The position numbers were made by a program, and so were the translations under genes. A stretch of 64,000 bases of DNA from Amphiscolops sp. MND2022 (Eukaryota), in assembly GCA_964187785.1 (NCBI GenBank), contig OZ076409.1:74216001-74280000 (forward strand), in the 5' to 3' direction. Shown here piece by piece: positions 1 through 64,000 of the stretch. Numbering within the stretch: the stretch's first letter is position 1; each line of letters opens with the position of its first letter. The notes below the pieces were generated by a model that was not told the DNA's origin, made no database searches, and worked only from the letters and a program-made list of their open reading frames with translations.

Positions 1-429
1 CTCCACAAGTTCAGGAATTTTGAATGTCCTCTAAATTATTTACATCAGAACATGGAGAAGTTATTGATCAATTGTAGGAGTGATGTCAAAGAAATCATCA
101 GGGTTTGTTGTCAAAATCACGAAATTAGTGAGACTTTAGCTGAAGCTTTTTTGGGGTTTGAATTGCCTGTTTCTTTATCGTCAATCGAAGAGCATTGTAA
201 AAACGCTATTGTTTTTAACATGAACGCACTGATGCGCATGAAAGACTACGTAGAAACTTGCCCAGAAGATGTTACAAATCGGGAACATTCGAAACAACCT
301 CTGGTATACGGTCATAGATTAGATGGCTATGGTTCTGAGCCATCAGTGTTTCCCAAAGGTTTTTCTCAAGAAAGCAATTTTTTTTGTATTTGCGCATGCA
401 TTTCTTCTCAGCGATTCTTTATGGTATAA
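1..429 (+). CDS. Probable upstream part of the same Rep/helicase ORF, separated by a +1 frameshift
   Basis: Frame +1 is open from base 1 (LHKFRNFECPLNYLHQNMEKL...) to 429 and overlaps the 323-6007 frame, whose ATG is directly preceded by a TAG. Removing one T from the T8 run at 378-385 fuses them (...QESNFF-VFAHAFLL...). Confidence 0.6.
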   Translation, partial: LHKFRNFECPLNYLHQNMEKLLINCRSDVKEIIRVCCQNHEISETLAEAFLGFELPVSLSSIEEHCKNAIVFNMNALMRMKDYVETCPEDVTNREHSKQPLVYGHRLDGYGSEPSVFPKGFSQESNFFCICACISSQRFFMV

Positions 430-3400
430 ATTGTGTCATCTTTGCGACGAACATGTTCAAGTTTCTGAAATCTGTAAAATTTTGAACCGCCTTAGGGAAA
501 ATAAAAGTTTAAAACATCACCACACAAATCAATCATTAGTCAATGGATTGCAGAGTTCTTTCGCTGAACTGTTTCCTTCGCAAGCAGAACCTTTAATGAG
601 TTTTTGTGAAATGTTAGAGGGTTGTCAGGTTGTGCACTGTCACAGAGCTAATGTTGACACTGTTAGGATTGACTGTGCTAGAAACGATGTAATTTTAGTG
701 GTTGCCACCGATGTCCAAACTAGGGATAGTCAAATTCCTTTCAATTTAACATCAATTAATGGTAAAATCTTTCAATTGATTTTCATCTCAGCTGAAAGTA
801 AGGTGAGTTTGAGGCACGGAGATCCTTTTTTCAATTTCTGGACTATACTAAACGACGGAAGCCGTGCTAGAAAAGATCCAACTTTGGAATTCCAGTACAA
901 TAGAATTTGGAAATTTTTAATTTACGTTTCTAAGACAGACTTGAATGAGGAAACTAAACTTCGATACTTAAAATACATGGGAGGTCAGGGAATTTTTTTC
1001 TGTCAGGAACACCATCTGCCGCTATCTACGGATTACTTTAAAAGCCAACGAAAATGTAGTATGCCTAAAAACACCGGTGACCAGCGAATATGTACTAGAA
1101 AATCTGCTTGGCGTTGTCCCGAAAAAAATTGTTTAGCGTCCGTTTGTAAGACTCATTTCCGTGAATTTTGTGACGCTAACGATAAGGTTTTGGTCGACAA
1201 CACGCCTTCTGATGATGCAATCCAAGACAGCAGCGATGAAGAAGCTACTTTGCCAGAAGAAGCTGAAGAGCAGCCGGAAAACAGTTTGCCAGGACCTAGC
1301 TTCGTACTGGACGACCAACAGAGACCACAAGAACCTGAAGCCAACATGGATGAGTTCGATTGCCCACAATTAATTGTGGATGCCGGGTTCCAAGAAACTG
1401 ATGCTTTTGCCACGGACGCTGGCTGTGAGCCCGTTTACTTGTCCAATGACTCCAATTTCGTTCCCATGCATGTACTTTTAAATGGTGAATGTCAAATACT
1501 GAAAAGATTGAAATATCCCTCCCACATAGGCAAAAAATTCCAACGTTTTTTCCAAAATTTTGTTTCCACACTTCCGGGTCGTTCTATCCCCCTGCTGCAA
1601 CCTGAAGCGTGTCTATTCCCAAGCATTTTTTACAAGCAATTAGAAGACGGTTCGTTTCCTGGCGCTCTGCCTTTTTTCTTGTATGACGATAAAAATGCAA
1701 ACTCCAAGTTAGAATTCGATGGTTTGCATGAACACATGCGTTTAAGACTTAAGGACGGTACGCTTTTAACTTCTTCCAACTTGGCCTATATAATGTATGC
1801 TTTCGACTGTGTTTTAAATTTGTCACTTGTAAAATGCCACACAAATCAATTTTTCAAACGGGGATTGCAGACTATCACAATTGGCAAGTACAAACCGCAG
1901 CAGCTGACATCTACGGAGTCTGTTCTAAAAATGGATAGCGTCGACAGCGACGTACATGTAAATCGATTAGGAACTGCTTGTGCCACTGAAACGCCGGATC
2001 TTTTTGTCACTTTTACATGTAACCAAAAGGAACACCCGGGTGTTGCTGAAGTCGTTAACGCTATCTACGAACTGTACGGCAGCGCGACCACCGAAGAACT
2101 AAAAGAAGTGCTCCAGGCTTACATGGTCATCATTGTAAGATGCTGGACTAGGACTATTGAACTTTTAATTGATTACTTGAGGTTTTCAGACGAACAAATT
2201 TTGGGTGAAATTATCAAAGTTTGGGGTAGGGCAGAATTTCAAAGTGCAGCAGCTAACCTACAGCACTATCACATTCTTTTTTGGTTAAAAAATTCGACAC
2301 AGGACATCATCGAGAAAATTCAATGTGCACACAAACACGTCCTCCATGAGTTTAAAAAGTTGTTTCAAATGAATTTTGGAACTGTTGATAGTGACGAGCA
2401 TGCATTTAATTTATTTGAAAATTGTATTCGTGTTCAAAGTCATGACTGTGAGAAAGGGCACTGTCTTAAAAAAGTAAGGTTGAACGGCGAGCGAAAGTGT
2501 CGTTTCCCGCCCTATCCTCAAAGTAACGTTCCCTGGTACAAAGAATTCCACCAGCCACATTCGGAAGAAGCCCTAGTAGCATTACAGGAAATTGATTTGG
2601 CTGAACCGAGGCCTGGTTTTTATAATTGTCTGCAGGTTACATCAACTCTAATGGCAGGTAAATACATGTATGCGGCCACCAGAGGAGAGCACATGTCACC
2701 GCTGAATGTTGCCCTCTGGAGTATTTGTAAATCCAGTTTGAACGTTTTAAAGGTTTGCAAGTCGGTCGCATCCAGGTACTTGACATCGTACGCTGCTGGA
2801 AAAGAAGAGCATGCTGATGTGGCCATCAATCCAGAAAATGCTCACAATGTGTTAAATGTGCAGGTTCAAAAAATTGAAAACAAAAAGTTAGGCGGTGTTA
2901 GAAAGATCCTTGCTCGAGAAGCTAAGCAGGATAAAACGCAAGGTATCATAGATTCTACCACCATTGCAACTACAGAATGTGTGTCATGGATGTTACAACT
3001 ACCAACCGTAATAACAACCATGGATTTTGTTTCAGTCCCCACAGTAGCTTTAGAAAATCGGGGAGGTGTAATTTTAAAAAGGAAAAATAATACTTGTTCG
3101 AGAACAAATATACCAGGTGTGGCCAACGAAGGTCCATGTGAGATCAGGGAACATTATTTGAGGTTACCACGTCATCGACTTTTTACTAGGAGCCAGAAAA
3201 CTGTTCTAGAAAGTGTGAACAAAACGCCATTTAGTACTGATAAAGTAACTGTTTTTTCTCTACGTCCTCCTGAATTGCTTTTTGTAAACAAACTAAGACC
3301 CTACTTCAGGTGGTTTAAACGCGAAAAATTGTCCGGTAAAAGGGAGACTGTCAGTGTACGATTTTTGAAAAACGACGTTAGGGAATCAACTTGGGTGGAT

Positions 3401-6007
3401 GGTGAAAATTACGCCATTCGTTTAAGACCTTCTGCAGTTTCCGATTTTTCAGCTTTTGTTCAACAATCTTTGGCGGCAAATCCAACCGATAGTAGACTGC
3501 TCGATGCCTATGTAATAATTTCTGAAGTTTTGAACATTTCCTCACATCCAGGACGGTCGCTTTTTGTTTCCAGTGACCCAAATTTATCAAATACACCAGC
3601 AGAGGTTGTTTTTTCAAAAGTCTATCCCCGCAATCCTGCAAACTTTTTAATACATTTTCTACTGTCTAACGCTGCTTTTGAAACTGAATTTGACCTTTTT
3701 GATGTACCAACTTTGAAAGATGCATACGTGAAGGGCGGGGTTGTACCAGACAAGCCAGTATACGATGAAAATGATGTCAATGAAATTTTGAAAAAATATG
3801 TGCTTGAACAATTGCGATATCTACCAGGTGGTACGCGTTCTTTTGATAACAATCTACTGGCGGCAAAGTCAGCATTTAAGGGAATGTTAGTAGATAATGA
3901 CATTTATAACGAAGGGCTGCCCATTACAAAGATGGATACCTTGACTGAAGCATTGGAAGATAAGGCTAAAAAGATGCTTCGGCAGTCCCAATTAAACATC
4001 ATAAAATCTTTAACTCAGAAAAATTTGCCCAATTTTCCTAATTCTAGCGTTTTTGAAAATGTGTCCAAGGAAACACCATCTGACTGGTCTGGTGAACTTG
4101 TTCCAAACAATTTCCAGTCTGAAGAGTCTCGTGAAGAACAGACCATAATTTTAGAACAACTGAAAGAACTAATTTGTGAAAATCTGTTTTCTGACCATAA
4201 ATTTAGGAAACACCAGTTGATTTTGGGTCCACCAGGTACAGGTAAGACGTATGTGCTGACGATGGCTTTGGGTTATGCGCTCACGAAAGGGTTGTTTTGT
4301 CTTGTAACTAGTTTAGCATCCCGAAGATCGATGCACTTTGGCGGTGAGCACATTCACAAATTGTTTTGCTTGCCACCTTCTTCTTGTGGATCACCGATCA
4401 AAATGGCCGAGCAAGCTCTCGTGAAACTGGACCACCGGAATGACAAGAAGATGCTGTTAATGGCCCTGGAAGTACTGTTCGTGGAAGAAGTGAGCCTAAT
4501 CAGTGCTGAACAGTGGTCTGCCATGGACCTCACCCTTCAAGAGTTGAAGCAGTCAACCTTGCCTTTCGGTGGGGTTTTAGTGATCGCGAGTGGTGATCAG
4601 ATGCAACTGCCATCAATCGAAGGGAACGACATCTTCCTCAGTCCGATTCTACTGACAAACTTCGCAATGTTCTTTTTGTCGCACTTTGTTCGAATGACAG
4701 ATGCTGACGGTCAAACTGTACTTCGACACATGTGGAAACGTCCCATAAATGCCCCTGCTGTCGCTGAAATACTCGCGATTTTGGACACTAAGTGCACGTT
4801 CAAGGACAGCTGGGATGACTTGGACGACCCTTGTGTAATGCGGGTTTTTGGTAAGCGGAAAGCTGAACAGAAAGAATTCGATAGCCACATTCAGCGAGTA
4901 CGCGCGTCGGGATCGTCCTACCGCATTTTCGAAGCCAAGGATGAGATCTGTCTTTCGAAGAGCTCAGTTTGGAATGAGACTGACTCTCGACAAGTAAGTA
5001 ACTATCTGAGCGACAAGGTAAACGAGCCCAAAGAGTTAATTGTTTACTCAAAGGCTTTGGTAAGGGTCACAGTTAATCTGGAAGCTGAGCAATTGTCTCA
5101 AGGTCAGGTTGGTGTAGTTCACGAGGTTCCCACTGGTGACTCGGTCACAATCTACGTCCCAGATAGCAGTGGTGGGGAAGTTGACATCACTCCTGGGATG
5201 TTGGAACGCGAGGAGTACCTGACTTGGCGGACTGTGACTCTCTCAAAGCAGACCGGCTTCGTTCAGCCTTTCAAGAAGAACTCAGTGCGAAGGGTACAGT
5301 TACCGCTCATGAACTTTGTTGCCATGACTACGCATAAACTCATGGGTGACACTTTTGAAAAGCTGGCGACGTCCATTTCCGCAACCGACAGTAGTTACGC
5401 TTTGTGGATGACGTCGCAAGTTTTTGTCATTGTCAGTCGTGTCAAACAATTAAAAAATCTTACTTTTGTTGGTAACAAAAATGCCACGTTAGGTGCCATC
5501 GAATCCATTTTTGAAAAGAGAGACTTGAGAGAGGAACGTCTCTTCAATTTGCTAGACAAAATAAAAAACAACTCAAGGTGCAATTCCAATGTTCAGCCAA
5601 TCAACATTTCGAAATTATCTTACGTACCTTTCAACAAAAACATCCCAAGCACTCCGAATGGCTTCGTATATCTTTTGATTAGTCTGAACCCGACTTCGCC
5701 CGAAACTTTTTACGTAGGAGAAACTGAGCGCGCGCTGTTAACACGGTTGTCGGAACACAACTGCGGCAACGGTTCAGATTTCACGAGAATCCCCCACCGT
5801 TTGCCCTGGGCAGTCGCTGCTTTTGTTTGCAATTTTTCATCACGTTTTTCACGCAAAGACTTCGAAAAAGAAATACATCGAGAAATGTGTGTTCGTCATA
5901 ACAATTTGAAAAATTTAAAAGACATGCTATCTCTTTTCCAGGAAAAAGTTAACGAAAAAAACTGTGATCTCCATTTTTGTGTTTGCGGTGAAATGCAATC
6001 GACATAA
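323..6007 (+). CDS. Helitron-like Rep/helicase transposase (HUH-Y2 Rep + Pif1-family SF1B helicase) with C-terminal GIY-YIG endonuclease domain; N-terminus probably lies upstream of the window
   Basis: 1894-aa uninterrupted ORF. Rep motif I PDLFVTFTCN (1994-2023), HUH motif EFQSAAANLQHYHILFW (2234-2284), two-tyrosine motif YLTSY (2777-2791). Helicase Walker A GPPGTGKT (4226-4249), Walker B VEEVSLI (4481-4501), FGGVLVIASGDQMQLP, HFVRMTD, TTHKLMGDTF, QVFVIVSRVK. GFVYLLISLNPTSPETFYVGET...RLSEHN (from 5660) fits GIY-YIG. Cys/His cluster CQEH...CTRKSAWRCPEKNCLASVCKTH near 1000-1157. Assignment is by motif recognition only. Confidence 0.92.
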   Translation: MAMVLSHQCFPKVFLKKAIFFVFAHAFLLSDSLWYKLCHLCDEHVQVSEICKILNRLRENKSLKHHHTNQSLVNGLQSSFAELFPSQAEPLMSFCEMLEGCQVVHCHRANVDTVRIDCARNDVILVVATDVQTRDSQIPFNLTSINGKIFQLIFISAESKVSLRHGDPFFNFWTILNDGSRARKDPTLEFQYNRIWKFLIYVSKTDLNEETKLRYLKYMGGQGIFFCQEHHLPLSTDYFKSQRKCSMPKNTGDQRICTRKSAWRCPEKNCLASVCKTHFREFCDANDKVLVDNTPSDDAIQDSSDEEATLPEEAEEQPENSLPGPSFVLDDQQRPQEPEANMDEFDCPQLIVDAGFQETDAFATDAGCEPVYLSNDSNFVPMHVLLNGECQILKRLKYPSHIGKKFQRFFQNFVSTLPGRSIPLLQPEACLFPSIFYKQLEDGSFPGALPFFLYDDKNANSKLEFDGLHEHMRLRLKDGTLLTSSNLAYIMYAFDCVLNLSLVKCHTNQFFKRGLQTITIGKYKPQQLTSTESVLKMDSVDSDVHVNRLGTACATETPDLFVTFTCNQKEHPGVAEVVNAIYELYGSATTEELKEVLQAYMVIIVRCWTRTIELLIDYLRFSDEQILGEIIKVWGRAEFQSAAANLQHYHILFWLKNSTQDIIEKIQCAHKHVLHEFKKLFQMNFGTVDSDEHAFNLFENCIRVQSHDCEKGHCLKKVRLNGERKCRFPPYPQSNVPWYKEFHQPHSEEALVALQEIDLAEPRPGFYNCLQVTSTLMAGKYMYAATRGEHMSPLNVALWSICKSSLNVLKVCKSVASRYLTSYAAGKEEHADVAINPENAHNVLNVQVQKIENKKLGGVRKILAREAKQDKTQGIIDSTTIATTECVSWMLQLPTVITTMDFVSVPTVALENRGGVILKRKNNTCSRTNIPGVANEGPCEIREHYLRLPRHRLFTRSQKTVLESVNKTPFSTDKVTVFSLRPPELLFVNKLRPYFRWFKREKLSGKRETVSVRFLKNDVRESTWVDGENYAIRLRPSAVSDFSAFVQQSLAANPTDSRLLDAYVIISEVLNISSHPGRSLFVSSDPNLSNTPAEVVFSKVYPRNPANFLIHFLLSNAAFETEFDLFDVPTLKDAYVKGGVVPDKPVYDENDVNEILKKYVLEQLRYLPGGTRSFDNNLLAAKSAFKGMLVDNDIYNEGLPITKMDTLTEALEDKAKKMLRQSQLNIIKSLTQKNLPNFPNSSVFENVSKETPSDWSGELVPNNFQSEESREEQTIILEQLKELICENLFSDHKFRKHQLILGPPGTGKTYVLTMALGYALTKGLFCLVTSLASRRSMHFGGEHIHKLFCLPPSSCGSPIKMAEQALVKLDHRNDKKMLLMALEVLFVEEVSLISAEQWSAMDLTLQELKQSTLPFGGVLVIASGDQMQLPSIEGNDIFLSPILLTNFAMFFLSHFVRMTDADGQTVLRHMWKRPINAPAVAEILAILDTKCTFKDSWDDLDDPCVMRVFGKRKAEQKEFDSHIQRVRASGSSYRIFEAKDEICLSKSSVWNETDSRQVSNYLSDKVNEPKELIVYSKALVRVTVNLEAEQLSQGQVGVVHEVPTGDSVTIYVPDSSGGEVDITPGMLEREEYLTWRTVTLSKQTGFVQPFKKNSVRRVQLPLMNFVAMTTHKLMGDTFEKLATSISATDSSYALWMTSQVFVIVSRVKQLKNLTFVGNKNATLGAIESIFEKRDLREERLFNLLDKIKNNSRCNSNVQPINISKLSYVPFNKNIPSTPNGFVYLLISLNPTSPETFYVGETERALLTRLSEHNCGNGSDFTRIPHRLPWAVAAFVCNFSSRFSRKDFEKEIHREMCVRHNNLKNLKDMLSLFQEKVNEKNCDLHFCVCGEMQST

Positions 6008-6186
6008 ACATTTAAAATGTAAAACGGTTTATGAGTATCGGGCTACTTCAAGTTGAACATCGTAAAAGCTAAAAAGTAGGGGAAGCACATAGTTCTACTC
6101 TGATAGTGAACGTGTGTTGTTCTCCATATTAGGTTTAAAAACAACATGTAATTTCGTTTGAAAATGTAAAAGTAGGCACTGTAGAA

Positions 6187-6508
6187 TATCGCACAAAGTT
6201 CTACTAAACAGGGTGGACACCGTGCGATACTCTGTTTGTTCACTGTAGGTTAGTTTGCTGGAATCGACGGAGAGCGTGGTTCCAGGTAGGTTTATATTAG
6301 GTTAGTTAGCTGGAATCGACGATGAGCGTGGTTCCAGGTAGGTTTAAATTAGGTTAGTTTGCTGGAATCGACGATAAGCGTGGTTCCAGTTTTCTTTATA
6401 TAAGGTTAGTTTGTTGAGTATCGCACAAAGTTCGACTGCAGAGGGTGGACACCGTGCGATATTCAACAGTTGAATTTGAATGGTGGAATCGACGATAAGC
6501 GTGGTTCC
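6187..6508 (+). repeat. Cluster of hairpin repeats downstream of the RepHel stop codon
   Basis: Four copies of (CT)GGAATC-GACGnnnAGCGT-GGTTCC(AG) at 6258, 6310, 6362 and 6485. Two copies of TATCGCAC...GTGCGATA at 6187-6229 and 6419-6461. Confidence 0.85.
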
Positions 6509-8330
6509 TGGTTTGATAGTTTTTAAAAGTAACAGGGTAGGATTAAAGAAGAAAATGACAAAGAACGATGTGACAGACCCATGATGACGATCCAGAAGCA
6601 AGACTTACAGTGTATGAGCTTGTGTACACCTTCCAAGCTTATACACAACTTTTTAAAAAAACCAACGTCGAAACATATAACCAGTGTAGCAGCACGTGTA
6701 GACCTTTTGAGTCTTCCACGCTGACACACTCTACGTAAATAAAGATCGTCAAATCCCAAAAACCGAAATATCATTCCAAAAACAGACTTTCCTAAAACCG
6801 ACTTTTTCTACTTCGACTTTTTGACTAAAAGACTTTAAGACTGAGACTAATTGACTTTTTTCTAAAACCTAACCGCTCTTTTTCCTTACATAGTGAGTAT
6901 GAGTGGAGTTGAGCTTTGAGACGTTTTTGACTTTATTCAAAGTAGTGTTCTTAATAGAGCGTCCACAGAAAGAAGAAAAGATTTGAGAATTAATTCTAAT
7001 AATCCTCACTTGTTTCTTGTGCTTGACTTTTTTGAAAGGATGTAGGTTTAGAGCAGGCTGTAGTGATTAGGTTGTACAATTGTCACTGTTGGACATGATT
7101 TCTGCATATCACTGGGAGCCCTAATCGATAGTTCTCGTTTTGTAGATAAAATGAACAGTTCAATTCTTGTAATAGTTGGTGCCAGTACCCTTGTCAATAG
7201 CAAACACTATCTGGTTGCCTGCAACTGCGAAACAACAGAATGCCTCCGAAAAGAACTTCTTACAAATAACCCCATATTCAAGCTGGTAAGTTATTGCTCG
7301 AACAGGAGGTAAGTTTCAAAACAGAAATCCACATAAGTCTGCTCAATAAATCGTTACTTTTCCTGAATTTCATTCCTTCATCTACTGCCACGGCTTTGTC
7401 AGTTTAAGCGCGTTAGCGTCTTAAACTGACAACTTTCTCTTTTTTTTGCCCTTTTTCTTTTTGTTTTGGGCTACTTACAGTTTCCTTAAACATCTTCAAA
7501 GTTCAGTTCAATGCAACTCCCCTCCCGGGAGTTTCCAAAGGTCGTTCGTGGTGCGGGCCTTCTGATTTCGTACACAGTAAAACCGTGTGCGAATTCAGTA
7601 AAACGAGAAAACCACCCCAGGTCGTTAAAGGTGCGGGCCTACTATTCCGTGAGGGATAGTGAAACGAGAAAACTGGTTTTTGATGTCATGATTGAGAATA
7701 CATTTTCGTAAATTTTAATGTTTATCCATTTTGAAGTTTAACCATTAAAGTAAGGACTGACCAGGGCTCGTGTAGGCCTGGCACAATTGTAGGTAGCGCG
7801 TTTCCTGACGCCGCTGAGATAGGTAGGTTGTTTTAAAAAAAAATCACTCAGAAAAATTTGTCTTATGGGTTGACCAGACTCCCCAGTAAGTCTGGCACGC
7901 TTTTCGTTTCCTGAAGCCGCTGAGATAGGTAAGTTTAGATTCCTTTAATACTCTGCGTTTGAATCTGGTTTTCTAAGGCTTAGTTTTTTTTTCTTACGTT
8001 TATTCGGATTAGGTTTCTTAGGCTTACTTTCTTAGGTTTTTTTAGGATTAGGGTATTTAAGCTTATGTGTAGACTTTAATCTGATATTAAGTTATCGTGT
8101 ATTTTGTTTTTTTTATCAGGGAGAGCAACAACGAAGAAAAAGGAAGAATCTTGACGCAGCTTTTGTTCAGTTGAATAATTCACTATTTCTTTCTTCCATT
8201 TATATCATTTATCGAAGATTTTATTTTTGATAATTGTAACCTTTGAAACTGAGTCTTTTATTAATCATTACACATTGTTTCGAATATCATCTGTGCAATA
8301 GTTTCAGTACAATACATTTTTTCAGTGCTT

Positions 8331-8909
8331 ATGAATATGAATTTCGTTGCAAGAAGGATCAACGGTTTCTCGTTCAGAGTATACGAAAGGATATTCCCTG
8401 ATACTAATACCTTATTAGTTGGTGATTCGTTAATCAGGGATTTCAATATGCAAGAAGTAGATGTCATTTCCATTGCTGGTGGACGGGCCGAAGATATCGG
8501 CAGCTATCTAAGGTCATGCAATTTAGAGAAATACCACTACGTCATTCTGTTCTCAGGAGGCAATGGGCTATCTCGGGTTGTAAAAAATGGTAGAATCAGG
8601 CCCCCTATGAGCCCTAATGAAGTGAAAGAAGAGGTGCATGCTACTGCTGGTTATCTGCACGAATTAGGGATAAGAGTGTTCGTCGTTGGTATCCCCAGAA
8701 GAAAGAATTTTTCGTTCTTCTCAATATGCTGCTTGAATGAACTTCTTTGCAGAGACACTTATCGTTACGTATACGTAGGTGTGGCGTCCAAAATGTCATG
8801 CGACTATGTGCTGGCACCTGACGGAATTCATTTGAATAGCATTGGAGTCCGTCAACTAAAAACAATTTTGAATAGAAAAGTTTTTGAGTTTTTGAGAAAT
8901 GAAATCTAA
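8331..8909 (+). CDS. SGNH/GDSL-family hydrolase (element cargo)
   Basis: All four SGNH blocks occur in order: LLVGDSLIR (Ser), IAGGRAEDI (Gly), LFSGGNGL (Asn), DGIHLN (Asp/His). First ATG at 8331 follows an acceptor-like ttttttcag ending at 8325. SGNH ORFs are known cargo of Helentron-type elements. Confidence 0.88.
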   Translation: MNMNFVARRINGFSFRVYERIFPDTNTLLVGDSLIRDFNMQEVDVISIAGGRAEDIGSYLRSCNLEKYHYVILFSGGNGLSRVVKNGRIRPPMSPNEVKEEVHATAGYLHELGIRVFVVGIPRRKNFSFFSICCLNELLCRDTYRYVYVGVASKMSCDYVLAPDGIHLNSIGVRQLKTILNRKVFEFLRNEI

Positions 8910-9356
8910 GTTATCCTCCACCTTGTTGTAATTCTACCTATCTCACCTGCAGCTGTTGCACATTATTTAAATTTGCTTTGATGGTGACAAGTTTTGTTCA
9001 CGATATTACCATTGGAATGAGTTAATTCGATTTGTGTTGATGCCATTAGTATTTGCTGAATTTGAATTGAGTTTCACATTGAGTTTTGCAGATTTCATTA
9101 CATTTAATTGTATTTGTCTTTTGGTATAATTTGATGTTTTGTTTTGCTGCGATCATCGTACTTTTTATAGAATTTGAATTGCAATGGGCTATCCAACTTT
9201 CTGTTCATGCTATCATTGTTTACAGAATTTGAATTGAAATTAAACAATCAAAGTTCTATTGTAGCTACCAATTTTATATTTTCTTTTCCCTTTTTTTACT
9301 TCAATGGAAAACATATTGAACTATTCGGTAAAGGTTAAGTGTGTTTACTTTTCATC

Positions 9357-9644
9357 ACTGATCGACGGACAGCGTGGTCAGTAATTAGGATTTTCAAACA
9401 AAATAAGGTAGGATTGTCATCACTAATCGACGAAAAGCGTGGTTGGTGACTGTGTTCTTAACAAAAATAAGTCGTAATTAATTTCAAGTCGTATTTCCTT
9501 AAGTGCGCAGTGGATATTTTCTGCATACAGGTAATTTTTGGTAACAGGTATGTCTGGTAAGTTTTCGGCTAAAGCAGCTAATGGTGTAATCACTGATCGA
9601 CGTAAAGCGTGGTTGGTGATTAGGTGATTTAAACAAAAATAAGT
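9357..9644 (+). repeat. Three hairpin repeats downstream of the SGNH ORF
   Basis: CACT(G/A)ATC-GACGnnnAGCGT-GGT(C/T)(A/G)GT near 9357, 9421 and 9591, each followed by AACAAAA(A)TAAG. Confidence 0.8.
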
Positions 9645-9919
9645 CGTGTTTCATCAAAAAGCAGCGAATGATGTGCCTCTCTCTGGTGATGTCTAACACA
9701 ATGATTTTTTAAGACGTTTTTTTAAGATTTGATCTGTTTGAATTGAACCATGCCACGTGGTGGAGACCGAGGACATTCTTGAACATCATTAACTAAATTA
9801 ACACTAATTAACCTCTAAACCAACACCCGACTGACGACGACTTCTCCAATCACGTGAGTAACTTTCCTTATTAACACTTTCCCGCCTACTGGACTCTTCG
9901 TTTTGCCGTCCACGTCTAG

Positions 9920-21000: not shown

Positions 21001-21030
21001 ATATCTACACCCAATTGCGGTAGCAGCTAG
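15094..21030 (+). mobile_element. Three tandem family-B units (1973, 1973, 1991 bp)
   Basis: Near-identical heads (GTGCGGGGGG...CCCCAACAAAA), internal recurring ACCGGAAATG motifs, type-2 hairpin GATAGCCTTTCAAGTTGGCCTGGTGTCAACTTGGAAGGGCTATC (16605-16648) and the same terminal palindrome as family A. Confidence 0.75.
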
Positions 21031-52900: not shown

Positions 52901-54881
52901 GTCAAAAGTAGTGATTACAGGAGATTTTTTTAAAAACTCCTGTTATTTGTCACGTTCCATTGTGCCTTTCTTAATCGGTCCTTGTCAGTTATGGTATTAG
53001 CGCTCAACAACGACCTCACAGACAACAAACAACTTGTTTACAGTTGTAAAAAGTATTTATAATACAACCATGCTCGGTCTGGACAGATTTTTCACCCCAT
53101 TCGTTCTGAACAAGAAAAATTTTTTTCCCAAAAACCCCATTTTTGTCAGGTCGAAAATTGATTCCCCGTCTTTTGAACAACAATATTGTGTCTGACGTAA
53201 CCTCTGGCCTCCAAAATACTGAAAAACAGATATATGACTGGTATCAAATTCTTCAGTGACATGTGAGCCACGATAACACGTTTCGCAAAGGAAAATTCTA
53301 TTTTCAACTGAAAATTTGAACACACATTTTCACAATAAAAACAGAATACATAACAATCTAACCTGTTTCCCGTCAGTTACAATTAATATAGTATCAGTGT
53401 TGCGAATATGAGGTCTATACAGGTGTGTATGGGAAAAATGTGGCGCATAAAGCATTGTGTAACACAAAGCTTACCAAAGTACTAAGAATTTTTCACTGTA
53501 TTTTTTGCACTCTAACACAAAAATTTGATAGTGTAAACATCAATGAGCAGTTTAATTTAGTACGGTTTATCAACTGTGTATCTTTTTCAAAGTGCACGAT
53601 CTTTCTGTTGTTCCAAACTCCTTTGTTACGGCTGAAAAGTGTCATATGTTTTACAACGCAATGTTCATTAAACGATACATTAGCAAAGACCGAATCAACT
53701 TCACAGCAGGTAATCAATTTCTCAATACGTCTTTCAGTACTTGGATTTCGCAGACTATATAGATCTGATTTGCATTTTTATAAAGACTTTATAACTGAAT
53801 CTTGCATTTTTATAAAGAGTTTATAAAAAAATTTCGTGATAGCCTTCCAAGTTGGCCTTCGGCCAACTTGGAAGGCTAACACTACAATCACCAAAAACCA
53901 GGAGTTCCTTTAATCTCAAAATAGGCGGGGAAACTTTCATTCAACTTTCTTTTTTCACGTTAATTGATAAATTCAGGACATGAGCATTTCTATTCGCTAT
54001 ACGATGACCACCATTGTGTTAAATAAATAACTCTTTCATTGTGACGCTTAAAAATACCGTAAAAACTAACTTGAAACTTATGAATTGTATGTGGAACGTA
54101 CATTCATCTAACCAATGAGTGGCTACCCCTATTAGTTCCACGAAATCCTCTACCCCTCCACCAGACAGTACGTTACAATATACGTTGATGTCTTCCACAG
54201 TGGTGACATACGGCAAAAAAAAGGAAATGGAGTTGGACTGTATGTATTTCTAATGCATTTAAGTCAGCCACTTGTGGAAGGCAAGGTTCACTACTACGAA
54301 ATAAATCTATCCCAGCTGAAAATTATTTGGGCAAACACATGGCACACGAAAATACTTCAAAAATTTTCAGCAGTCAAATCCTTCCACAAAAATTTTTCTG
54401 TTCGATAGTGAATATTTTCAAAATTTGGAATCCGCCAGTCCCGTCATCTTCGCATCTCAGATCGGTCACAACAGAGCTTTCTTTTTTACAATTCTCTCCA
54501 CCCATTTCCACATAACGAGGCAGTTACGTTCACTATTTGGAGTGTTATTGGAGATTATAAGGCATTAATCACTATAATGAACAATTACTTCAAATGTTGA
54601 AACTCTTCCACTTTTCTTTGTACATTGTTAAAGTAGAACATCACTGTTATTCAGCAGGAACGTCGCGCTGGCTTGCAGATTGATGGAGAATAAGTGACAA
54701 GTAGGATTGTAAGGCACCACGTGTCGTGGAGATGCCAAATATGAAATACGTTGAACACAACAAAGACTACTTTTGTCAACAGAACGGAAAACGAAAATTT
54801 TATTGTTGAGAATTATTTTCTTTCTATACACATTTTCCTCGCTTCTCGGCAGTGTAACTGCAACAACCTCGCCTCCACTGG
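49989..54881 (+). mobile_element. Long family-D unit (4893 bp) with internal ~353-bp tandem subrepeats
   Basis: ACGGTCC...ACGGTC anchors at 50807, 51159, 51512 and 51875. Body homologous to 55919-60652. Type-2 hairpin at 53840-53878. Ends CTGG-GTG. Confidence 0.65.
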
Positions 54882-55918
54882 GTGGTCACGAGTATACTCT
54901 ACCACAATATTTGCGAGGTGGGGGAGGGGCCCCGAGTCCGAGCCATGCTGTCAGATTTCTATCTAGAGTGAGGGGTCCAGAAAAACAGCGATTTTGGAAT
55001 TGAGCCATACGATTTGAATGAAACTTTGTGTGTAGGTAGATCTCAAAATTATAAGAACTTTTTCCTTCTGGCAAAACATGGTTGGAACATTGTGTCGGAA
55101 GTTATGAACAAATGATCGGTTTTTTCACCTATTTTCGGCATATTTACACCTCGGTACAACCAGCCTGTGGATACAATTGGCTGAAACTTTGCATGCGAGG
55201 CATAAATGAAGAAAAGTGTTTGCATGTCAAAAATCATTAGGCTGCTGATACTAGGCTGGGAGATAAATGTGGAAATATAAACGGAAAATTGTGAAAAACC
55301 CGGTCATTGCGTCATAACTTCCGAACTTTTGTATTGATTGTGTTTACTTCAGCGGTAGCAGTACTTTGGAGGTACTTTCATCATCAGGTGGTCAGGTTAA
55401 AAAATAAAAAATAAAAAAGTTCTTCAAAAGTTCTACAAAAATTCTAAAATTGACGAATTTTTCAAAAAAAAAGGATTTTTCGGTTTTCGACGCTTTTTCA
55501 CATTCTGAGCATGAAAATGACGTAACCCTGCACTTACGATGACTACTTGAAGGATTTTCACATACCTCTTCGTCGATGAGTGGCCACTTTACAGAACTAA
55601 TTGTTCTTTTGTTAGAAGTCCCACCATTGTTTTGTCCCTGAAAAAAGTTCAAGAAACAACTTCTCCGTTGTTCCTGAGAAATGCGAAGCAGTTCGCAGGA
55701 ACAACGGATAGAAATAACGAAGTACCCGGGTGGTTGGAATGAGAGATATGTAATCATTCGTTAAACTGATGAAAAACAGAGTTTTTCATCAGTTGAACAG
55801 ACGAAAAACGTTTCCATGGATGTTACCTAAAGTGAACAGTACTGGTAGCGTATTTTAAAATATAATTCGACAGAAGCCGCCCGCCCACTCTGGTAATTAG
55901 TTTCCTTGCCTCCACTGG
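54882..55918 (+). mobile_element. Short divergent unit (1037 bp) with type-3 hairpin
   Basis: GGGGAGGGGCCCC left hairpin, type-3 hairpin at 55664-55708, ends CTGG-GTG. Confidence 0.6.
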
Positions 55919-58900
55919 GTGGTTGGGGCGTTATTCCCCACGAAGTTCGCGGCCGCGGGAGACGGGACCCGCGGACCGCCCATCCAATGCAAAAATATAC
56001 ACTCTAAACAGCACCATTATAAACACGATCTCGAAAATGAACCGTAGGATTGTCTTGAAATTTTGCATACGGATAGAAGAGAAAATTCTAAGAACTTTTT
56101 CCTGCTGGCACTTTTCCGAAAAAAATGTCCTTCATGGGTTTTTTTGGGTTTTTTTGGTTTTTTCTCATCTTTCTCATCTTTGATTAATCAATCACTGAAT
56201 CAAAGGCCATTTTCAGCATGAAGGAATGCCCGTAGCGGCAAAGTGCACTTTTACAAAAATCATCAACAGGCAACGGTCTTTCAAACGGTCCAAAAAATTT
56301 TCCCCCCGGGGGCATCCGAAGTGCCGAAAAGTGCCAAAATATTTTTTTGGTCTGAATCATTTTGATGAAATTGTTGATTTGAGCAGCAGGAACGGTCCGC
56401 ACGGTCTCGGACCATAAGGTCAAAAATTGTCAGTGAGTTATGGTGACGACCAAAATGACATTGGTTGAGCTGTAGGAGGCCTCTGAAAAAATTTGAATTT
56501 TTTGAGTCTACAATCCGAGCTGAACTGTTACGTATTATGAACTTTTCAGTACTATGTTGCCAATGACCGAGTACAGATAGATGCATGGGTCAGCCTTATT
56601 GAAATGAACATTGGGCACTGGGCTACCGATTGAGTGCAAAAATTATAGCCTAGTTGCTGTAGTCGAAGAAAAAAATTCTCAGAAGTGTTACTTTCAATTT
56701 GTCATGTTGACTCGGAGTTACAAAAAGGTGATTTTCTCGCCAACAACGGTCCGAACGGTCTTGGACCATAAGATCAAAAATTGTCAGTGTGCTATGGTGA
56801 CGCCCAAAAACCTACCAGAACATGGGTAGGATGCTTCTGAAAAAATTTCAAATTTTTACGTGGGCCCAAGAGTTATTGTGTTACATCGTAACAACTTTTC
56901 GTGTATGCATATCTCCTGACAGAGTACAGATAGCATCATGGGTCACCTTTATGAAAGTGAACGTGGGCCACTGGTGTACTGCATGGTTATAAAAAATTTA
57001 GACTAAGTGCTGCATGGCGTGAATAATATGCCAAGATGTGGTATTTACGATATTTTAGCACGACTCGCACTGACAAAAAGCCTATTTCTGCCCCAGCAAC
57101 GGTCCGAACGGTCATCAAGTATAAGGTCGAAAAATGTCAGTGTGACATGATGGCGCCTAAAAACCCACCAGAACATTGGTAGGAAGCTTCTGGAAAAAAT
57201 TCGAATTTTTACGTGGGCCCGAGAGTTATGATGTTGCATCGTAGCAACATTTCGTGTATGCATATCTCCTGACAGAGTACAGATAGCATCATGGGTCACC
57301 TTTTTGAAAAAGAACGTGGGCCACTGGTCTATCGATTGGTTGTAAAAAGTTTTCAATCACTGCTGCACGGCGTGAATAATATGCCAATATGGGGTATTTA
57401 GCATTTTTTTGCACGACTCGGACCTACAAAAGTCCCATTTCTGCTCCACCAACGGTCCGTACGGTCTTCAACCATAAGGTCAAAAAGTGTCAGTGTGCTA
57501 TGGCGACGCCCAAAAACCCACCAGTACACTTGTAGAGTGCTTCCGAAAAATTTTGGAATTTTTAGGTGAGTCCGAGAGTTATAGAGAGTTATGTTGTCAC
57601 ATCGTAACTACATTTCGGGAATGTATATCTCCTGACACAGTACAGATACCAATATGGGTCATCTTTTGGAAAGTGAACGTGGGCCACTGGCCTACCGAAT
57701 GATGATAAAAAGTTTTCACCAGTTGCTACAGGGAGTGATAAAAGTGCTTACATGGGTTACATAGCATTTTTTCAGGCGACTCGGACTTACAAAAAGCTCA
57801 TTTGCTCGCGAACAACGGTCTGTACGGTCTCCACTCAATGGGTCGAAATTTTTTTGTGGGCTATGGTGACGCTCAAAAACCCATCAGTTTACTTGTGGGA
57901 TGATTCTGTAAAAATTTAGTGTTTCCGTGCAGACTATGTTACATATTACATTGGGAACCGTGTTTTTTTCTCACCAAAATCATGTTTTTGAGTGCCCAAA
58001 AACAATTTTTAAAGCCCAGTAGCCACCTAAAATGTTCTTTTGCATAACATGGGATGTGAATAACGTGAAGAAAGTGCTCACTGTGGATTTGGAGTTATCT
58101 CGAAAAAATCAGCTGTCATTAGACGTTACATTACATAAAATCGTTCCTTACATATCGATTCATGGGTTGAGTCAAAAACAGCTAAAGTTCTTTTTCAGTC
58201 AATCAAGACACTTTTTTGTTCACAACCAAGTGTACAGCTGACGTCGAACCTATTTTGACTTTTCACAATGGTTATAGTTCAATTTTGAGGTACAAAAGCC
58301 TCTTTGACAAACAAAATTCCATGATGAAATTGCTTTCCAAATCATTTTTTGAAGTATAGGAACGCCATTTTTAGCCGAGAACCATCTAATATCCACTTCT
58401 CTTGGCCCAGTGGCTTGTGAAAAATACAACTGGGCATTGACAAGGCACAAGGACCTTACTTCGAGTAGTAATGTGCCACAATATTTGCTAATCGATAGCA
58501 AATTTTGTTGAAAATTGATACAACATCACATTTTTGGTGGACTCGAAATGACAAAATGGAGCTTCAGCAGCAACTATTGGCTTTTAGTGCAACTCACTGG
58601 CACTGTAGCTTACGAAAATACGGTTTACAGTAGTTTCATGCTACTTTTTCAGAATCTGAGGTACATAAAAATATCATACTGAATAGACATATAACTTCCA
58701 CCTCGGAATTTTTCCGGATGTGTCACCGCTTTTTTGGTATCAGCGGTCCTACCAACACTGTTTTTGGTCTAACACTAAACCCGAAGATCAACCAAGGTGT
58801 ATATCAGACTTGTAAAATCAATGCAAGGACTTTCGACATGTCAAAAGTACTGATAAGAAAAGAAACTTCTCAAAAATTCATGTTATGTGTCATATTCCAT

Positions 58901-60652
58901 TCCACGTTTTTTAATCGGTGCTTGTCGGTTATAGTATTAACGCTCAGCAACGAGGTTACTGACAAGATACAACTTGTTAACAGTTATTAAAAGTATTTAT
59001 AATACCACCTTGCTCGGTCTTGGCACATTTTTCATCCCATTCGGTCTTAACGTGTAAATTTTACTTCCCAAAAACCCTATTTTTGTCAGGTCGAAATTCG
59101 AATTTTTGTGTTTTGATCAATATTATTGTGTCTGACGTAACCTGTGGCCTCCAAAATACTCAAAAACAATAGTATGACTGCTATCAAATGCTTCAGTGAT
59201 ATGTGGGGCACGTTAACACGTTTTGGTAGGAACAATTCCACTTTGAAGTGAAAATTTGGAAGACACATTGTGTCAATAAAAACTGAATAGGTGAAAAACG
59301 TACCTAACTCTCGTCAATTAGTATTGATGTAGTAACTGTGTTGCGAATTAGAGGTCTATAGAGTGGTGTATGGGAAAACTGTGGCGCATAAAGCGTTGTT
59401 CATAACAAAGTTCTTCCAGTAACTACTATTGTGTTTTCAAAAGTTTCACTATATTTCACATATCCACAGAATGTGATTGATGCTACCTAGTAATGGAAAA
59501 CCACTGTCGAATCTTCTTTAGTGGACTCAACAGTCCTGAAAATCACAGACATACATCATGTTTCATAATTATACGATCGAGGCTACACAATAATTTATTT
59601 CCGCTAGTTGCTGATAACTGAATTTCCTGATAGCCTTCCAAGTTGGCCTTGTGTCAACCTGGGAAGGCTATCAGTAGAAAACACAAAGAACACAGCTTGT
59701 TGTTGCCTTTAATTTGCTGTTGTTTTCGTTAAGATTCTATGGTACCGTTTCTTTATAACATGTGGTTAACATAAGACAATTTCTCTCGGTATGGAACGAC
59801 ATCCATTGATAAGAAAGATTACACTTTTTTCAGTTGAAAAAGACCTTGAAACTACTGCGCAATTCATGCAATTCATCCAACAAGCTCAATCATTTCAATA
59901 CTTTGCGTCCCATTGGGCGTCACGAACCACAATACTCCCTTTAACTGACAGTACAAAGACACATCATCATTTGACCGTCCACAGAGCGAAGGCGTGGCGA
60001 GGCACGCCTTTCGAAGTCCTTTGGCAAAAAAGTACTAACGTCCGTTCGTGACGCATACGAAAAACTCTTTTCATTTCAACAATCGTCATAAAGCATATTC
60101 GTTATATCGTCTTTTGGTTACATTTGTGCAGTGATACCTTTATCAGTGAAATATTAAGTTATACCTAGGTAACAGCAGTTACTTCGTGATTACCAAAGTG
60201 ATATCAAAATGTTGTTACATAAATATTTCTGACAGCGGAATTCCGAAGTGTCATTAGGTACTTTTGCAGTGCTCGTTAGGAAAGCGAGTACTTTTGCTTG
60301 GACCAAACATGCTTGTATCAGATTGGTCATGTGAAGGCAGGTAACGGAATCAAAACAATGTTCCTCATCAACTTTTTGGTAGGGTCAGAAACACAATGTT
60401 TCCTTTTTACCGTCCCCCAATTGTTTGTTAGCTTCTGTTCATAGAGAATTGTTTCTGCGCAGACCAAAATATAGCAAGTTATCCAATACGCCTGATATCG
60501 GTTTTGCCCCACACAGAACTATCACTTAACTTTTTTGTATGTTGACATCTTTTTACCCCGTAGTTCAACAACTCATGCACCTTCATTTCTTCTTCAACAA
60601 CTAACTCGCCACCTCCGTGTCGTCTCGTGGTTTGTTTAGCCTCCAGCGCTAG
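55919..60652 (+). mobile_element. Long family-D unit (4734 bp)
   Basis: Subrepeat anchors at 56391, 56745, 57098, 57451 and 57814. Type-2 hairpin at 59628-59673. Variant palindrome at 59989-60010. Confidence 0.65.
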
Positions 60653-61727
60653 GTGGTTGGGGCGTTATTCCCCACGAAGTTCGCGGCCGCGGGAGACGGG
60701 ACCCGCGGACCGCCCATCCAATGCAAAAATATACACTCTAAACAGCACCATTATAAACACGATCTCGAAAATGAACCGTAGGATTGTCTTAAAATTTTGC
60801 ATACGGATAGAAGAGAAAATTCTAAGAACTTTTTTCTGCTGGCACTTTTCCGAAAAAAATGTCCTTCATGGGTTTTTTTGGGTTTTTTTGGTTTTTTCTC
60901 ATCTTTCTCATCTTTGATTAATCAATCACTGAATCAAAGGCCATTTTCAGCATGAAGGAATGCCCGTAGCGGCAAAGTGCACTTCTACAAAAATCATCAA
61001 CGGTCAACGGTCTTTCGAACGGTCCAAAAAATTTTCCCCCCGGGGGCATCCAAAGTGCCGAAAAGTGCCAAAATATTTTTTTGGTCTGAATCATTTTGAT
61101 GAAATTGTTGATTTGAGCAGCAGGAACGGTCCGCACGGTCTCAAATTGTAAGGGCAAAAATTGTCAGCGTTCAATGGCGGTTCCAAAAATATAAGTCAGT
61201 CACCTGTAGGAGTTGTAACAAAAAATCGATTTTTGGGTAATATGGCATGTTGAGTGGTTGGATGAGAAATACCCGTAACATGTTGAGTTTGATTTGATGC
61301 AGCAGTGGTTGCAGCTGCAGCAAACGTGAAAATGATAAAAGGGCTGGGATATATCACATGCACAAACCAATGTTGCCCTGGGGCTTTCCTTGTGCCGCCA
61401 AATGCCTCAATGCGATCATTATGTTTTTCCAAATGGGGTCGCAAAACTAATTGTCACCGGTGTTCCTAGCGATGCGCAGCAACTCGCAGGAACAACGGGG
61501 CTCTCCGAACGCAAAGCTCAAGGCGCCCTTTCGTTGATTTGACGGCAGTCGCAGTTGATATTTTTTTGAATAAGTGATGAGATGTATCGTTGAATCCCAG
61601 AACATGTAACAAAAAAAGGAAGGTGGAATTTCAACACATTGGTTTGTTGCTGATTTCACGTAAGCAGCAAACTTAATCAGCAACTCCTAAACTCCTCTCT
61701 CGTGGTTTGTTTAGCCTCCAGCGCTAG
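60653..61727 (+). mobile_element. Short family-C unit (1075 bp)
   Basis: First ~490 bp are nearly identical to the start of unit 55919; the rest is homologous to unit 48918. Type-3 hairpin at 61457-61498. Confidence 0.65.
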
Positions 61728-64000
61728 GTGCCGGGATTTCTATTCGATAAAGTATGTTGCGCGTGTGGGTAGGGCCCCTGGCGCGCTCTTGGGTATGGTG
61801 TTCACCAGCTAGGAAATAGGGGTCGATTTTTTGGGATCTCCTAAACTAGCCACACGATTTGGCTGAAATTTGGCACACGTACTCCCCTCGGCACGGTGAA
61901 GATGATTTCCTACTGACGTTTTTCCCGCAAAATTTTTTTTGTTGTCCAAAATAACGGTTTTTGGGGTAAAATTTTGAACTTTTTTTAAATTTCATCTTAT
62001 ATCTCGCCACGGGTTTACGCTAGCGCTTGAAAACCCTGCTAAAGAAAGCTTGCAAACTGTCTCAGGAATGGGGTGTGAAATTTTCAGCTCAATCGGACTC
62101 AAACTCAGGGAGATATAGCGTTTTTCCGGAGCGGGGGGGTTTCATTTTTCTAACGGTCCAGCTTATCTTAGCCATTTTTTCGAAAACGTACTCGCCTAAA
62201 GACCTCCCCTGGCCGATTTTATTCCCAGCAAAACCATTTGGCCCTAAATACGGAGTTTCAGCGTTCCAGCATTCCCGGGCGAAAAGTTGTGGGACTTAGA
62301 AAATTTCAAAAATTTTCAAAAATTTTTTTTTCCGTTTTCCGCCCTCCCCCCCTAGGGGAAAAGACCACCCAACCAGTAATTTGAGTGAATTCATGTGGAA
62401 AGGCCATGTTTAGAGGAGAAAAATACCGTTTAGATCGTCTTTTTATCTTTATTCAACGTTGACTTATGACGTTTTGAAGGTGATGTTTGGAGGTGTGAAG
62501 CACGTGAAAAGTAAACGTTATGAGTATTTATCTGATCTGAAAGCCATTGAGATGCAACCTATTTTGCTCAAAACGTAATTCATATCAGTTTGGTAGTCAA
62601 TCAACACCCTTTGTTGTCATTTGACATCTTTTTTTGTTGATATAGGAAAAAATTTCGTGTATTTATTCATTTTTTTATCATCAAATAACTTGAAACAGTT
62701 GAGTACATTCCATCCCCCCTTCACGGGGGAGATGAGAATGTACTCGCAAAAAGCCCCGAACTACGGCCCTTACCTTCCTGAGCTACGCAGTATAAAGATT
62801 GCATATTGGTTCCGACATTTTGATAGAGTTATATCTTGGTAATCTGTCTGGGTATGCAGAAAAACCAGCACGTGCTTTTTTATACCAAAGTTGCTCACAA
62901 CGACATTTATTTTATATCAACGCCCCCATATTTATCAACGCCCCCCGTCCGTGGGCATGCCGAGGCATGCCCTTCGACGACGTATACCAAAATATGTTCG
63001 AGCGCGTTAGCCTAGGTGCCGGGATTTCCATTCGATAAGGAATTCTGCGCGTGTGGGTAGGGCCCCTGGCGCGCTCCTGTGTTTTCGGTTTTCCTACTCC
63101 TAAATAGGCCCCCTGAATTCCGGGATCTCCTAAACTATCCATACGATTTGGCTGAAATTTGGCACACGTACCCCCCTCGGCACGGTGAAGATGATTCCTT
63201 ACTGACGTTTTGCCCGCTAAACATTTTTTGTTGACCAAAATAACGGTTTTTGGTGGAAAATTTTCAACTTTTTTTAAATTTCATCTTATATCTCGCCACG
63301 GGTCAACGCTAGCGCTTCCAAACCTTTCTAACGAAAGTTTGCAAACTGTCTCAGGAATGCTGTGTGAAAATTTCAGCTCAATCGGACCTGAACTCGAGAA
63401 GATATAGCGTTTTTCCGGAGCGGGGGGGTTTCATTTTTCTAACGGTCCAGCTTATCTTTGCCATTTTTTCGAAAATGCACTCGCCTAAAGGCCTCCCCTG
63501 GCCGGTTTTATTCCCAGCAAAACCATTTGGCCCTAAATACGAAGTTTCAGCGTTCCAGCATTCCCGGGCGAAAAGTTGTGGGACTTAGAAAATTTCAAAA
63601 AATTTCAAAAAAATTTTTTTCCGTTATTTGGGCCCCCAAAGTGGGGGAAAAGACCCCCCAACCAGAAAAGCAAGTGAATGCATGTGCCAAGCCCTTGTTT
63701 AGAGGAGAAAAATGCCGTTTAGAACGTCTTTTTATCTTGGCTCAACGTTGACTTATGACGTTTTGAAGGTGATGTTTGGAGGTGTAAAGCAAGTGAATAG
63801 TAAACGTTATGAGTATTTATCTGATCTGAAAGCTATTGAGATGCAATATGGTTTGCTCAAAACGTAATTCATTGCAGTTTGGCAATCAATCAACACCCTT
63901 TGTTGTCGTTTGACATACTTTTTTGTTGTTATAATAAAAAATTTTGTGTATTTATTCATTTTTTTCTCATCAAATAACTTGAAACAGTTGAGTACATTCC
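61728..64000 (+). mobile_element. One complete (1288 bp) and one truncated family-A unit; array continues past the window
   Basis: 61728-63015 closely matches 27415-28700. The window ends inside a type-1 hairpin. Confidence 0.75.

Follow-up and report, generated by a model that had tools for sequence, protein, structure and literature searches.

A stretch of 64,000 nucleotides of the Amphiscolops sp. MND2022 genome (1.07 Gb), positions 74216001-74280000 of contig OZ076409.1 (here C1), lies in a multi-megabase array whose Helitron-like elements share one strand and have 5'-GTG...CTAG-3' ends and a conserved 5' hairpin. We call this whole stretch the window, and the 5' and 3' ends of each array unit its head and tail. 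Insertion appears to occur almost only at the start of the elements' own copies, which stacks thousands of mixed elements, a behaviour undescribed for the Helitron group. Judging from the sequences, we consider it probable that this is a rolling-circle system of the Helitron superfamily that preferentially targets the origin of its own copies, with self-targeting at the head of a resident copy.

A preliminary description of the window had reported 35 same-strand CT(A/G/T)G-GTG junctions that join units of at least four families with no host DNA between them, and our analysis confirmed this. All 35 sites are on the plus strand, from 9916-9922 to 63012-63018, while dinucleotide shuffles of the window gave 8.1 ± 2.8 sites with a maximum of 14 (50 shuffles). 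The minus strand has three such sites, none of them with a head after it. The 34 complete units belong to at least five classes, lie on a single strand and are 1,037-4,893 bp long: 24 units of 1.27-1.31 kb, three of 1.97-1.99 kb, one of 2.17 kb, one of 1.39 kb and five of 1.04-4.89 kb. None of the 1,672 BLAST pieces between window units was on the minus strand. The long units match other units, and therefore they do not conceal host DNA.

The array extends beyond the window. The region C1:74176401-74320000 (143.6 kb) is a continuous array with 89 joints, and plus-strand unit matches on C1 extend from ~72.9 to 76.5 Mb. Genome-wide, the head pattern gave 3,674 + 1,092 matches (~4,800 heads) against 3 for the reversed control; the first 100 matches listed are mostly in same-strand runs. 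Chance or an assembly artefact was ruled out by the presence of arrays on several chromosomes, by diverged units and by nested insertions. The reading of the array as a plain satellite was also rejected.

Arrays differ from place to place. Megabase arrays at C1 ~72.9-76.5 Mb and C3 ~2.4-3.9 Mb contain intact frames of the Rep/helicase (RepHel) protein from several lineages, 33-61% identical to protein P0022; these arrays may have a centromeric or subtelomeric role. At C1:23.96-24.02 Mb a plus-strand run meets a minus-strand run tail to tail. The family make-up also varies: the array at C1:3.49-3.59 Mb (minus strand) consists mostly of 2-kb units, and the one at C1:37.9 Mb mostly of units with GTGGTC heads.

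Units of the 143.6-kb region start with GTGC or GTGG in all 88 cases and end with CTAG (84 units), CTGG (three) or CTTG (one); a separate tail family ends with CTCG. The preliminary description had ascribed to the heads a hairpin and a GATCTC box. The hairpin stands, since its core GGG-N-AGGG-N-CC is found 35-60 nt into the unit in 34 of the 35 window heads. The box near +110 is GATYTY rather than universally GATCTC, which is exact in 22 of the 35 heads, the other 13 having GATTTT or GATTTC. Letters of the hairpin stem differ between families with pairing preserved, and relative to flank shuffles, folding is better at z < -1.5 in 16 of the 24 non-redundant heads (mean z -2.2). A 3' subterminal hairpin is strong in the main non-autonomous classes; none was seen in the autonomous tail or in the class of 1.0-4.9 kb. 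Asymmetric terminal inverted repeats were not found in the 88 units, where the longest inverted match between the first 20 and the last 80 nt is 5-9 nt, the level of shuffles.

The cut is CTAG^GTG, and the target is approximately YTNG^DT without duplication. Three sets of ends locate the cut: host-facing tails, host left flanks of heads and autonomous-type tails that end with CTAG. The first set comprises 105 host-facing tails of the main family sorted by hand (39 of 42 matches, 59 of the 100 listed of 117, and 7 of 9, with a few duplicated flanks). The search with 117 matches was not above its control (152), as an unrelated repeat was also matched; its 100 listed matches are 59 true ends, 2 mutated heads, 2 internal and 37 unrelated. 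The two bases after CTAG are GT (39), AT (35), TT (16), GA (5), GC, AC, AA and TG (2 each), TA and CA (1 each). The second base is T in 90 of the 105 tails, and thus the base after CTAG is host DNA. Host left flanks of heads are CTTG or CTCG in 32 matches (one of them a mutated tail and four of the tail family ending with CTCG), and rarer flanks end in A, T or C (~14 of 22 matches; e.g., TTTA, CTCA). Autonomous-type tails end with CTAG in 100 of 100 cases among the matches listed (226 in total). A 7-bp target duplication was ruled out, because positions 3 and 4 vary on the left and positions 5 and 7 on the right, which again gives the cut CTAG^GTG. The cut site is presumably similar to the nick sites of small rolling-circle phages and plasmids.

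Empty sites agree with this target. Five solo copies with both ends among the matches listed give CTTG^AT (two copies), CTCG^GT, CTTG^GT and CTGG^GA. At one locus (L022) two units of 1,322 and 1,288 bp are nested inside a host unit at CTTG^GTA and CTGG^GTA. Without the nested units the host unit is 1,289 bp long; its uninterrupted site is present in 14 other units, and nothing is duplicated. After an insertion, either end of the new unit forms a target-like site, and the CTAG^GTG joint is the best (consensus) form of the target. The earlier suggestion that the joined right and left ends are themselves the target, and that the site is regenerated on insertion, is therefore supported. Separately, the heads at C1:71099349, 74384690 and 75730550 are joined to positions +93, +31 and ~+312 of another unit. 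Intact units carry a poor target at these positions; these are either insertions near a head or deletions.

About 95% of unit ends adjoin a further unit, even though copies of the short motif abound elsewhere. Most copies are not dispersed solo ones, the pattern against which the preliminary description had set its reading. Heads of the autonomous-type family follow a unit tail in 84 of 90 cases (the whole list, left flank unconstrained), the other six representing four host sites, and autonomous-type tails face a head in 93 of 100 cases among the matches listed (226 in total; those listed are all from C1). Main-family tails are followed by GTG in 4,694 cases versus roughly 150 that face host DNA (filter-corrected), i.e., in ~97%. 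In the 143.6-kb region the 89 joints are occupied. Away from the joints, CTNG^DT is present there 170 times on the plus strand and 280 times on the minus strand without any insertion; the unused minus-strand sites include 33 CTAG^GT. Base composition gives an estimate, not a count, of ~10^5 CTAGGTG sites in the genome. Because many CTNG^DT sites outside joints stay empty, the short motif is insufficient. The 7-bp joint alone cannot explain the stacking, and the head beyond the joint must contribute.

This argument bears on the suggestion that the transposase is simply drawn to array regions by chromatin or local hopping and takes the best short motif there, with no recognition of heads. Such a preference would account for the position of at least 5 of 32 heads after CTYG within other units, a proportion much higher than that of arrays in the genome, and for the concentration of one head family at C1:73.46-73.88 Mb. 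Moreover, all 85 CTAGGTG sites of the 143.6-kb region are joints, so the 7-mer has no competitor there. However, none of the minus-strand CTAG^GT sites in this region is used, and polarity is strict. Together with the order of neighbours described below, this makes regional attraction alone very unlikely.

Among pairs of units with at least 99% identity (118 units compared), 23 of 25 share neither neighbour and 2 of 29 are adjacent. Near-identical units are also found on different chromosomes, where their neighbours differ. For the three pairs that the preliminary description had called near-identical, identity is 97.0, 97.1 and 97.3%; the units at 29992 and 32537 are 99.9% identical. Where tails match at 99%, the next head is also common to both in 0 of 38 joint pairs (0.3 expected), and the head of the same unit is common in 21 of 47. 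It follows that the unit is the block that moves.

Tandem Helitrons are usually explained as concatemers (PMC5876387, PMC11934779), and the arrays could be rolling-circle concatemers or multi-unit read-through products inserted as blocks, with the joint as a by-product of circle replication and not a target. A few adjacent near-identical pairs and some copied blocks are in line with this. However, one circle predicts identical neighbours, which the scarcity of adjacent pairs of at least 99% identity contradicts, and a run of 88 consecutive units comprises many classes. At host target sites, the sequence on either side of the cut resembles that of the joint, so the joint is a target by sequence. 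We regard concatemers as a rather improbable origin of the arrays.

Neighbours resemble each other at their heads. The first 60 nt are common to both units in 14 of 87 adjacent pairs (4.0 expected, p 0.0005), and the last 60 nt in 4 of 87 (2.2 expected, p 0.17). Neighbour similarity has z 7 at lag 1 and ~1 at lag 2, and it follows heads, not tails, which also argues against attraction to array regions without head recognition. Logistic coefficients for neighbour sharing are 0.58 for the head and -0.03 for the tail. One head family occurs with three bodies, which are 10-40 changes per 100 nt apart and are neighbours of each other in mixed order. In 42 of 84 cases the tail in front of an autonomous-type head belongs to the same family, versus a family share of ~6% of ends. 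A newcomer ends up between the upstream tail and the downstream head, and therefore head sharing suggests that the resident head is the recognised part, pointing to insertion at resident heads.

The same data help to assess a double-insertion model, in which insertion seeds only dimers, and their later growth into arrays is that of a satellite, through unequal exchange and gene conversion. Such dimers are known for other transposons (PMC5932611), the array at C1:3.5 Mb contains a three-unit block in tandem, and many units are head/tail chimeras. Against this model stand the lack of common neighbours in pairs of at least 99% identity, including those on different chromosomes, the restriction of neighbour sharing to the 5' end and lag 1, and the 12-kb autonomous copies that are single at exact joints. 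We find it unlikely that arrays grew in this way.

Several observations weigh against insertion at resident heads. Full comparison covered only 114-118 of ~4,800 units. A single head family supplies eight of the 14 head-matched pairs, and the excess of shared heads is weak when A1+A2 are taken by themselves (z 1.1-1.9). Roughly 3-4 of 13 neighbours with matching heads are near-identical over their whole length, which is the outcome expected from duplication. An age proxy gave no support for the predicted direction (left unit younger in 13 cases, right in 23). At 97% identity, matches across joints number 10 versus 4.3 in shuffles. In the array at C1:3.5 Mb (3.49-3.59 Mb, minus strand) the three-unit block is repeated at ~8.05 kb, and in 5 of 6 instances the head that comes after a 4.77-kb unit is of the same type. 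In two RepHel lineages at a greater distance (L077, L078), no head was found in the 3 kb upstream. The repeats at C1:3.5 Mb mean that block copying happens too, and the chimeras mean that units also recombine. Thus the earlier claim that simple tandem amplification does not explain the order holds for pairs of at least 99% identity, which rarely share neighbours, and has to be relaxed for some multi-unit blocks.

Self-targeting at resident heads, the reading that we prefer, could proceed as follows. The transposase, with an HUH Rep domain and two catalytic tyrosines (HUH-Y2), would bind the resident head (hairpin and box), treat the chromosomal joint as an origin and nick it at CTAG^GTG as it would to start transposition. 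A strand swap with the incoming element or with the joint of a circle would connect the 3'-OH of the upstream unit to the 5' end of the newcomer. The CTAG-3' end of the newcomer would then be joined to the resident GTG, so that the newcomer sits just 5' of the resident. Such an insertion would yield two usable joints; hence arrays could grow at any joint with one polarity kept. Newcomers would favour residents with a matching head, either via lineage-specific binding or via DNA pairing. Occasional insertion at look-alike host sites may seed new arrays, and bypass of ends or unequal exchange may copy some multi-unit blocks. Cutting of the opposite strand or of a branched intermediate by the GIY-YIG domain is speculative.

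The RepHel element of the window is a member of the array with the common head, and not the neighbour of the array, as it had first been described. It does end at the first junction (cut 9919/9920), as stated earlier. Its left end, 2,360 bp upstream of the window, directly follows the CTAG of another, non-autonomous unit and carries the common head, with the box in the form GATTTT rather than the predicted GATCTC. A copy at C1:74.04 Mb is 99.4% identical to it over the left 2.8 kb and 99.0% over the right 3.9 kb; both neighbours differ, and identity just outside is 0.52-0.56. Among six other RepHel copies with fetched flanks, four lie between units on both sides (C1:74.04 Mb, C8, C2 and C6), the copy on C13 adjoins another RepHel tail upstream, and the copy on C9 is rearranged and host-flanked. 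Lineages L079 and L080 have the same head architecture as in the array and are placed after a unit tail.

The RepHel gene of the window is split into two overlapping frames at ~323-429, and its sister copy is also split; other copies have a single frame of 2,369-2,375 aa. A cargo frame downstream has GDSL-like neighbours in Atlas (score 0.92, 139-159 shared features). It had no Pfam match, and a sequence search of PDB gave chance matches only. The stretch with this frame is unmatched in some sister autonomous subfamilies. A rare non-autonomous family (L019:5968-7249), 92% like the autonomous 5' region, stands directly before autonomous-type heads about nine times; its placement may reflect pairing over a longer 5' stretch. 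Two long window units (49989-54881 and 55919-60652) contain internal ~350-bp tandem repeats that are 69-76% alike. The head type of the cluster to which these units belong is also carried by a second autonomous lineage (L080). Coordinates are given in Table 1.

Table 1. Features of the window (positions in the window)
Feature	Position	Strand	Comment
3' 9.9 kb of the 12,279-bp autonomous-type element	1..9919	+	5'-GTG head 2,360 bp upstream of the window (C1:74213641)
End of the 518-aa upstream frame (predicted N-terminal part of the transposase)	1..429	+	Overlaps the next frame
1,894-aa frame: predicted Rep (HUH, YxxxY), Pif1-like helicase, C-terminal GIY-YIG	323..6007	+	
Predicted Rep catalytic region: Helitron_like_N match, HYH motif, YLTSY tyrosines	1982..2791	+	Pfam E 1.1e-9
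Predicted PIF1-like helicase, N-terminal motifs	4217..4618	+	Pfam E 2.3e-11
Predicted GIY-YIG endonuclease domain	5660..5878	+	Pfam E 3.5e-6, above cut-off
192-aa cargo frame with SGNH/GDSL-like motifs	8331..8909	+	Lead only
First junction, CTAG^GTG	9916..9922	+	Cut between 9919 and 9920, placed from host-flanked ends; 34 junctions after it
Array of 34 complete units and one cut unit	9920..64000	+	No break over C1:74176401-74320000
Example head: GTG, hairpin with GGG-N-AGGG-N-CC core, GATYTY box at ~+110	9920..10032	+	
Example tail hairpin, ~50 nt before terminal CTAG	11128..11147	+	Main non-autonomous classes only
Run of four units, one common head on three different bodies	29992..35087	+	1269, 1276, 1269 and 1282 bp
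Cluster of five separate-class units with GTGGTC/GTGGTT heads	48918..61727	+	Without common tail hairpin; two CTGG ends

The predicted protein has two features of the Helitron superfamily, an HUH Rep with two catalytic tyrosines and a fused Pif1-like helicase. In the Rep alignment H268 and H270 are invariant, and Y439 and Y443 are near-invariant. The predicted structure of the Rep region (mean predicted local distance difference test score, pLDDT, 83.9) has Helraiser 7LCC as its sole fold match (E 1e-8; Z 15.0, root-mean-square deviation 4.7, 427 residues), the next Z being 6.5. A protein search returned 180 clusters (50% identity) at E <= 1e-30 and 491 at 1e-10. A C-terminal GIY-YIG domain is predicted in 16 of 19 long relatives and is decayed in some lineages. 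DUF6570 was found in 0 of 8 and 0 of 19 clade proteins (27 scanned) and is present in the HLE2-like control P0033. Some clade members have an N-terminal OTU domain (P0017, P0020, P0134), and in P0017 and P0020 the GIY-YIG domain is decayed.

Trees of Rep, of the helicase and of both combined place 15 clade members apart from four HLE1-like and seven HLE2-like references with support 99-100. The trees are unrooted and thinly sampled; 26 of 36 sequences were kept (ten without the anchor motif were dropped), and references were labelled by Pfam and motif. The seven HLE2-like references do not form one group, and long branches meet. The protein, with its HUH-Y2 Rep, Pif1-like helicase and C-terminal GIY-YIG, thus appears to belong to a broad clade apart from the sampled HLE1 and HLE2.

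A metagenome contig (L037) that encodes a 30%-identical relative has the same hairpin core in a strong stem ~340 nt before the frame (0 of 200 shuffles); this is one case among nine metagenome loci, most of which lack the 5' flank, and in the other eight no element ends were found. Upstream of this hairpin, at L037:9-367, there are long inverted and direct repeats that resemble a miniature inverted-repeat transposable element. Viral contigs yielded no relative of the transposase and 36 single matches to the head pattern, none with a second head, which we take as chance. Among the matches listed from prokaryotic genomes there is one clade member, on a 2.5-kb contig (L040) in a bacterial metagenome-assembled genome; this is probably stray eukaryotic DNA.

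By the available definitions of ends and targets (PMC11417382, PMC3627910), this is a Helitron-superfamily element with the ends and target of neither HLE1 nor HLE2. It is similar to HLE1 and Helraiser in the Rep-helicase fusion with two tyrosines, the Rep fold, the 3'-CTAG (CTRR) end, the absence of target duplication and the presence of non-autonomous partners. Helraiser is reported to cleave the plus-strand end joint exactly (PMC5876387). Unlike HLE1, the element has 5'-GTG and not TC, a conserved 5' hairpin, a target of ~YTNG^DT instead of A^T and a C-terminal GIY-YIG; ~95% of its copies are in mixed head-to-tail arrays, and it is on a separate tree branch. With HLE2 (Helitron2, Helentron) it shares a RepHel with an extra C-terminal endonuclease (APE in Helentrons), OTU in some relatives and a 5' hairpin. 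It differs from HLE2 in having no asymmetric terminal inverted repeats, no T^T target and no DUF6570. GIY-YIG is clade-wide here, and one Sphagnum HLE2 family is reported to carry this domain (PMC11417382). In contrast to Replitrons, as defined in the available text of PMC10288648, a helicase is present and short direct terminal repeats are not.

IS91 also has an HUH-Y2 transposase and no target duplication, and its tetranucleotide target 5' of the origin resembles its own terminus (target CTTG or GTTC, ter end CTCG; PMC13181058). The system described here is eukaryotic, has a fused helicase and GIY-YIG, prefers additional bases 3' of the cut and has thousands of stacked non-autonomous units. 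The TrwC relaxase, which integrates DNA into a copy of oriT, and Rep of adeno-associated virus are HUH proteins that insert DNA into a second copy or mimic of their own origin (PMC6049929) and are the closest working model for the proposed step. These are plasmid and virus proteins, for which the accessible part of that source describes no self-built arrays. Reported tandem Helitrons and double-insertion dimers, the latter in Drosophila, have the same head-to-tail order and keep the target at joints (PMC5876387, PMC12001565, PMC5932611). In the accessible text of these reports they consist of one family and are short (2-7 copies in Xenopus) or ascribed to concatemers (PMC11934779, PMC12001565, PMC13404089, PMC5148889), whereas the arrays described here mix many families and several autonomous lineages over megabases. 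We found no description of GTG...CTAG ends or of self-targeted mixed arrays in the openly accessible literature; Repbase and the unclassified clusters of HELIANO may hold members.

Integrons are polar stacks of mobile units joined at regenerated sites, and the preliminary description had proposed an integron-like stack. Such a stack has one entry site, and here any interior junction appears usable: autonomous copies are found at interior joints. Furthermore, unlike in integrons, there is no tyrosine recombinase among the 42 window frames of at least 100 aa, the units are mostly non-coding, and there is no sign of excision. Related HUH transposons copy rather than excise.

A wider reading, which we put forward only tentatively, is that these elements represent a third major RepHel lineage, marked by the C-terminal GIY-YIG and by an origin hairpin conserved across distant eukaryotes. 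Its members would move mainly by origin-to-origin strand exchange into residents with matching heads and thereby build megabase safe-harbour arrays common to several transposase lineages.

Self-targeting at resident heads would explain concretely how a dispersed transposon can turn into megabase tandem DNA without concatemers or unequal exchange. It would also let a transposon multiply to thousands of copies with few hits in host sequence. The target logic of IS91 and the origin-directed integration of relaxases would thereby be linked to eukaryotic Helitrons, and the question of target capture by Helitrons becomes directly testable with short oligonucleotides. The clade of 180 clusters at E <= 1e-30 is a large RepHel group with ends that would be missed by finders based on TC...CTRR and TT. 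If the proposed targeting is true, kilobase insertions would need no more than a short portable head as their landing site.

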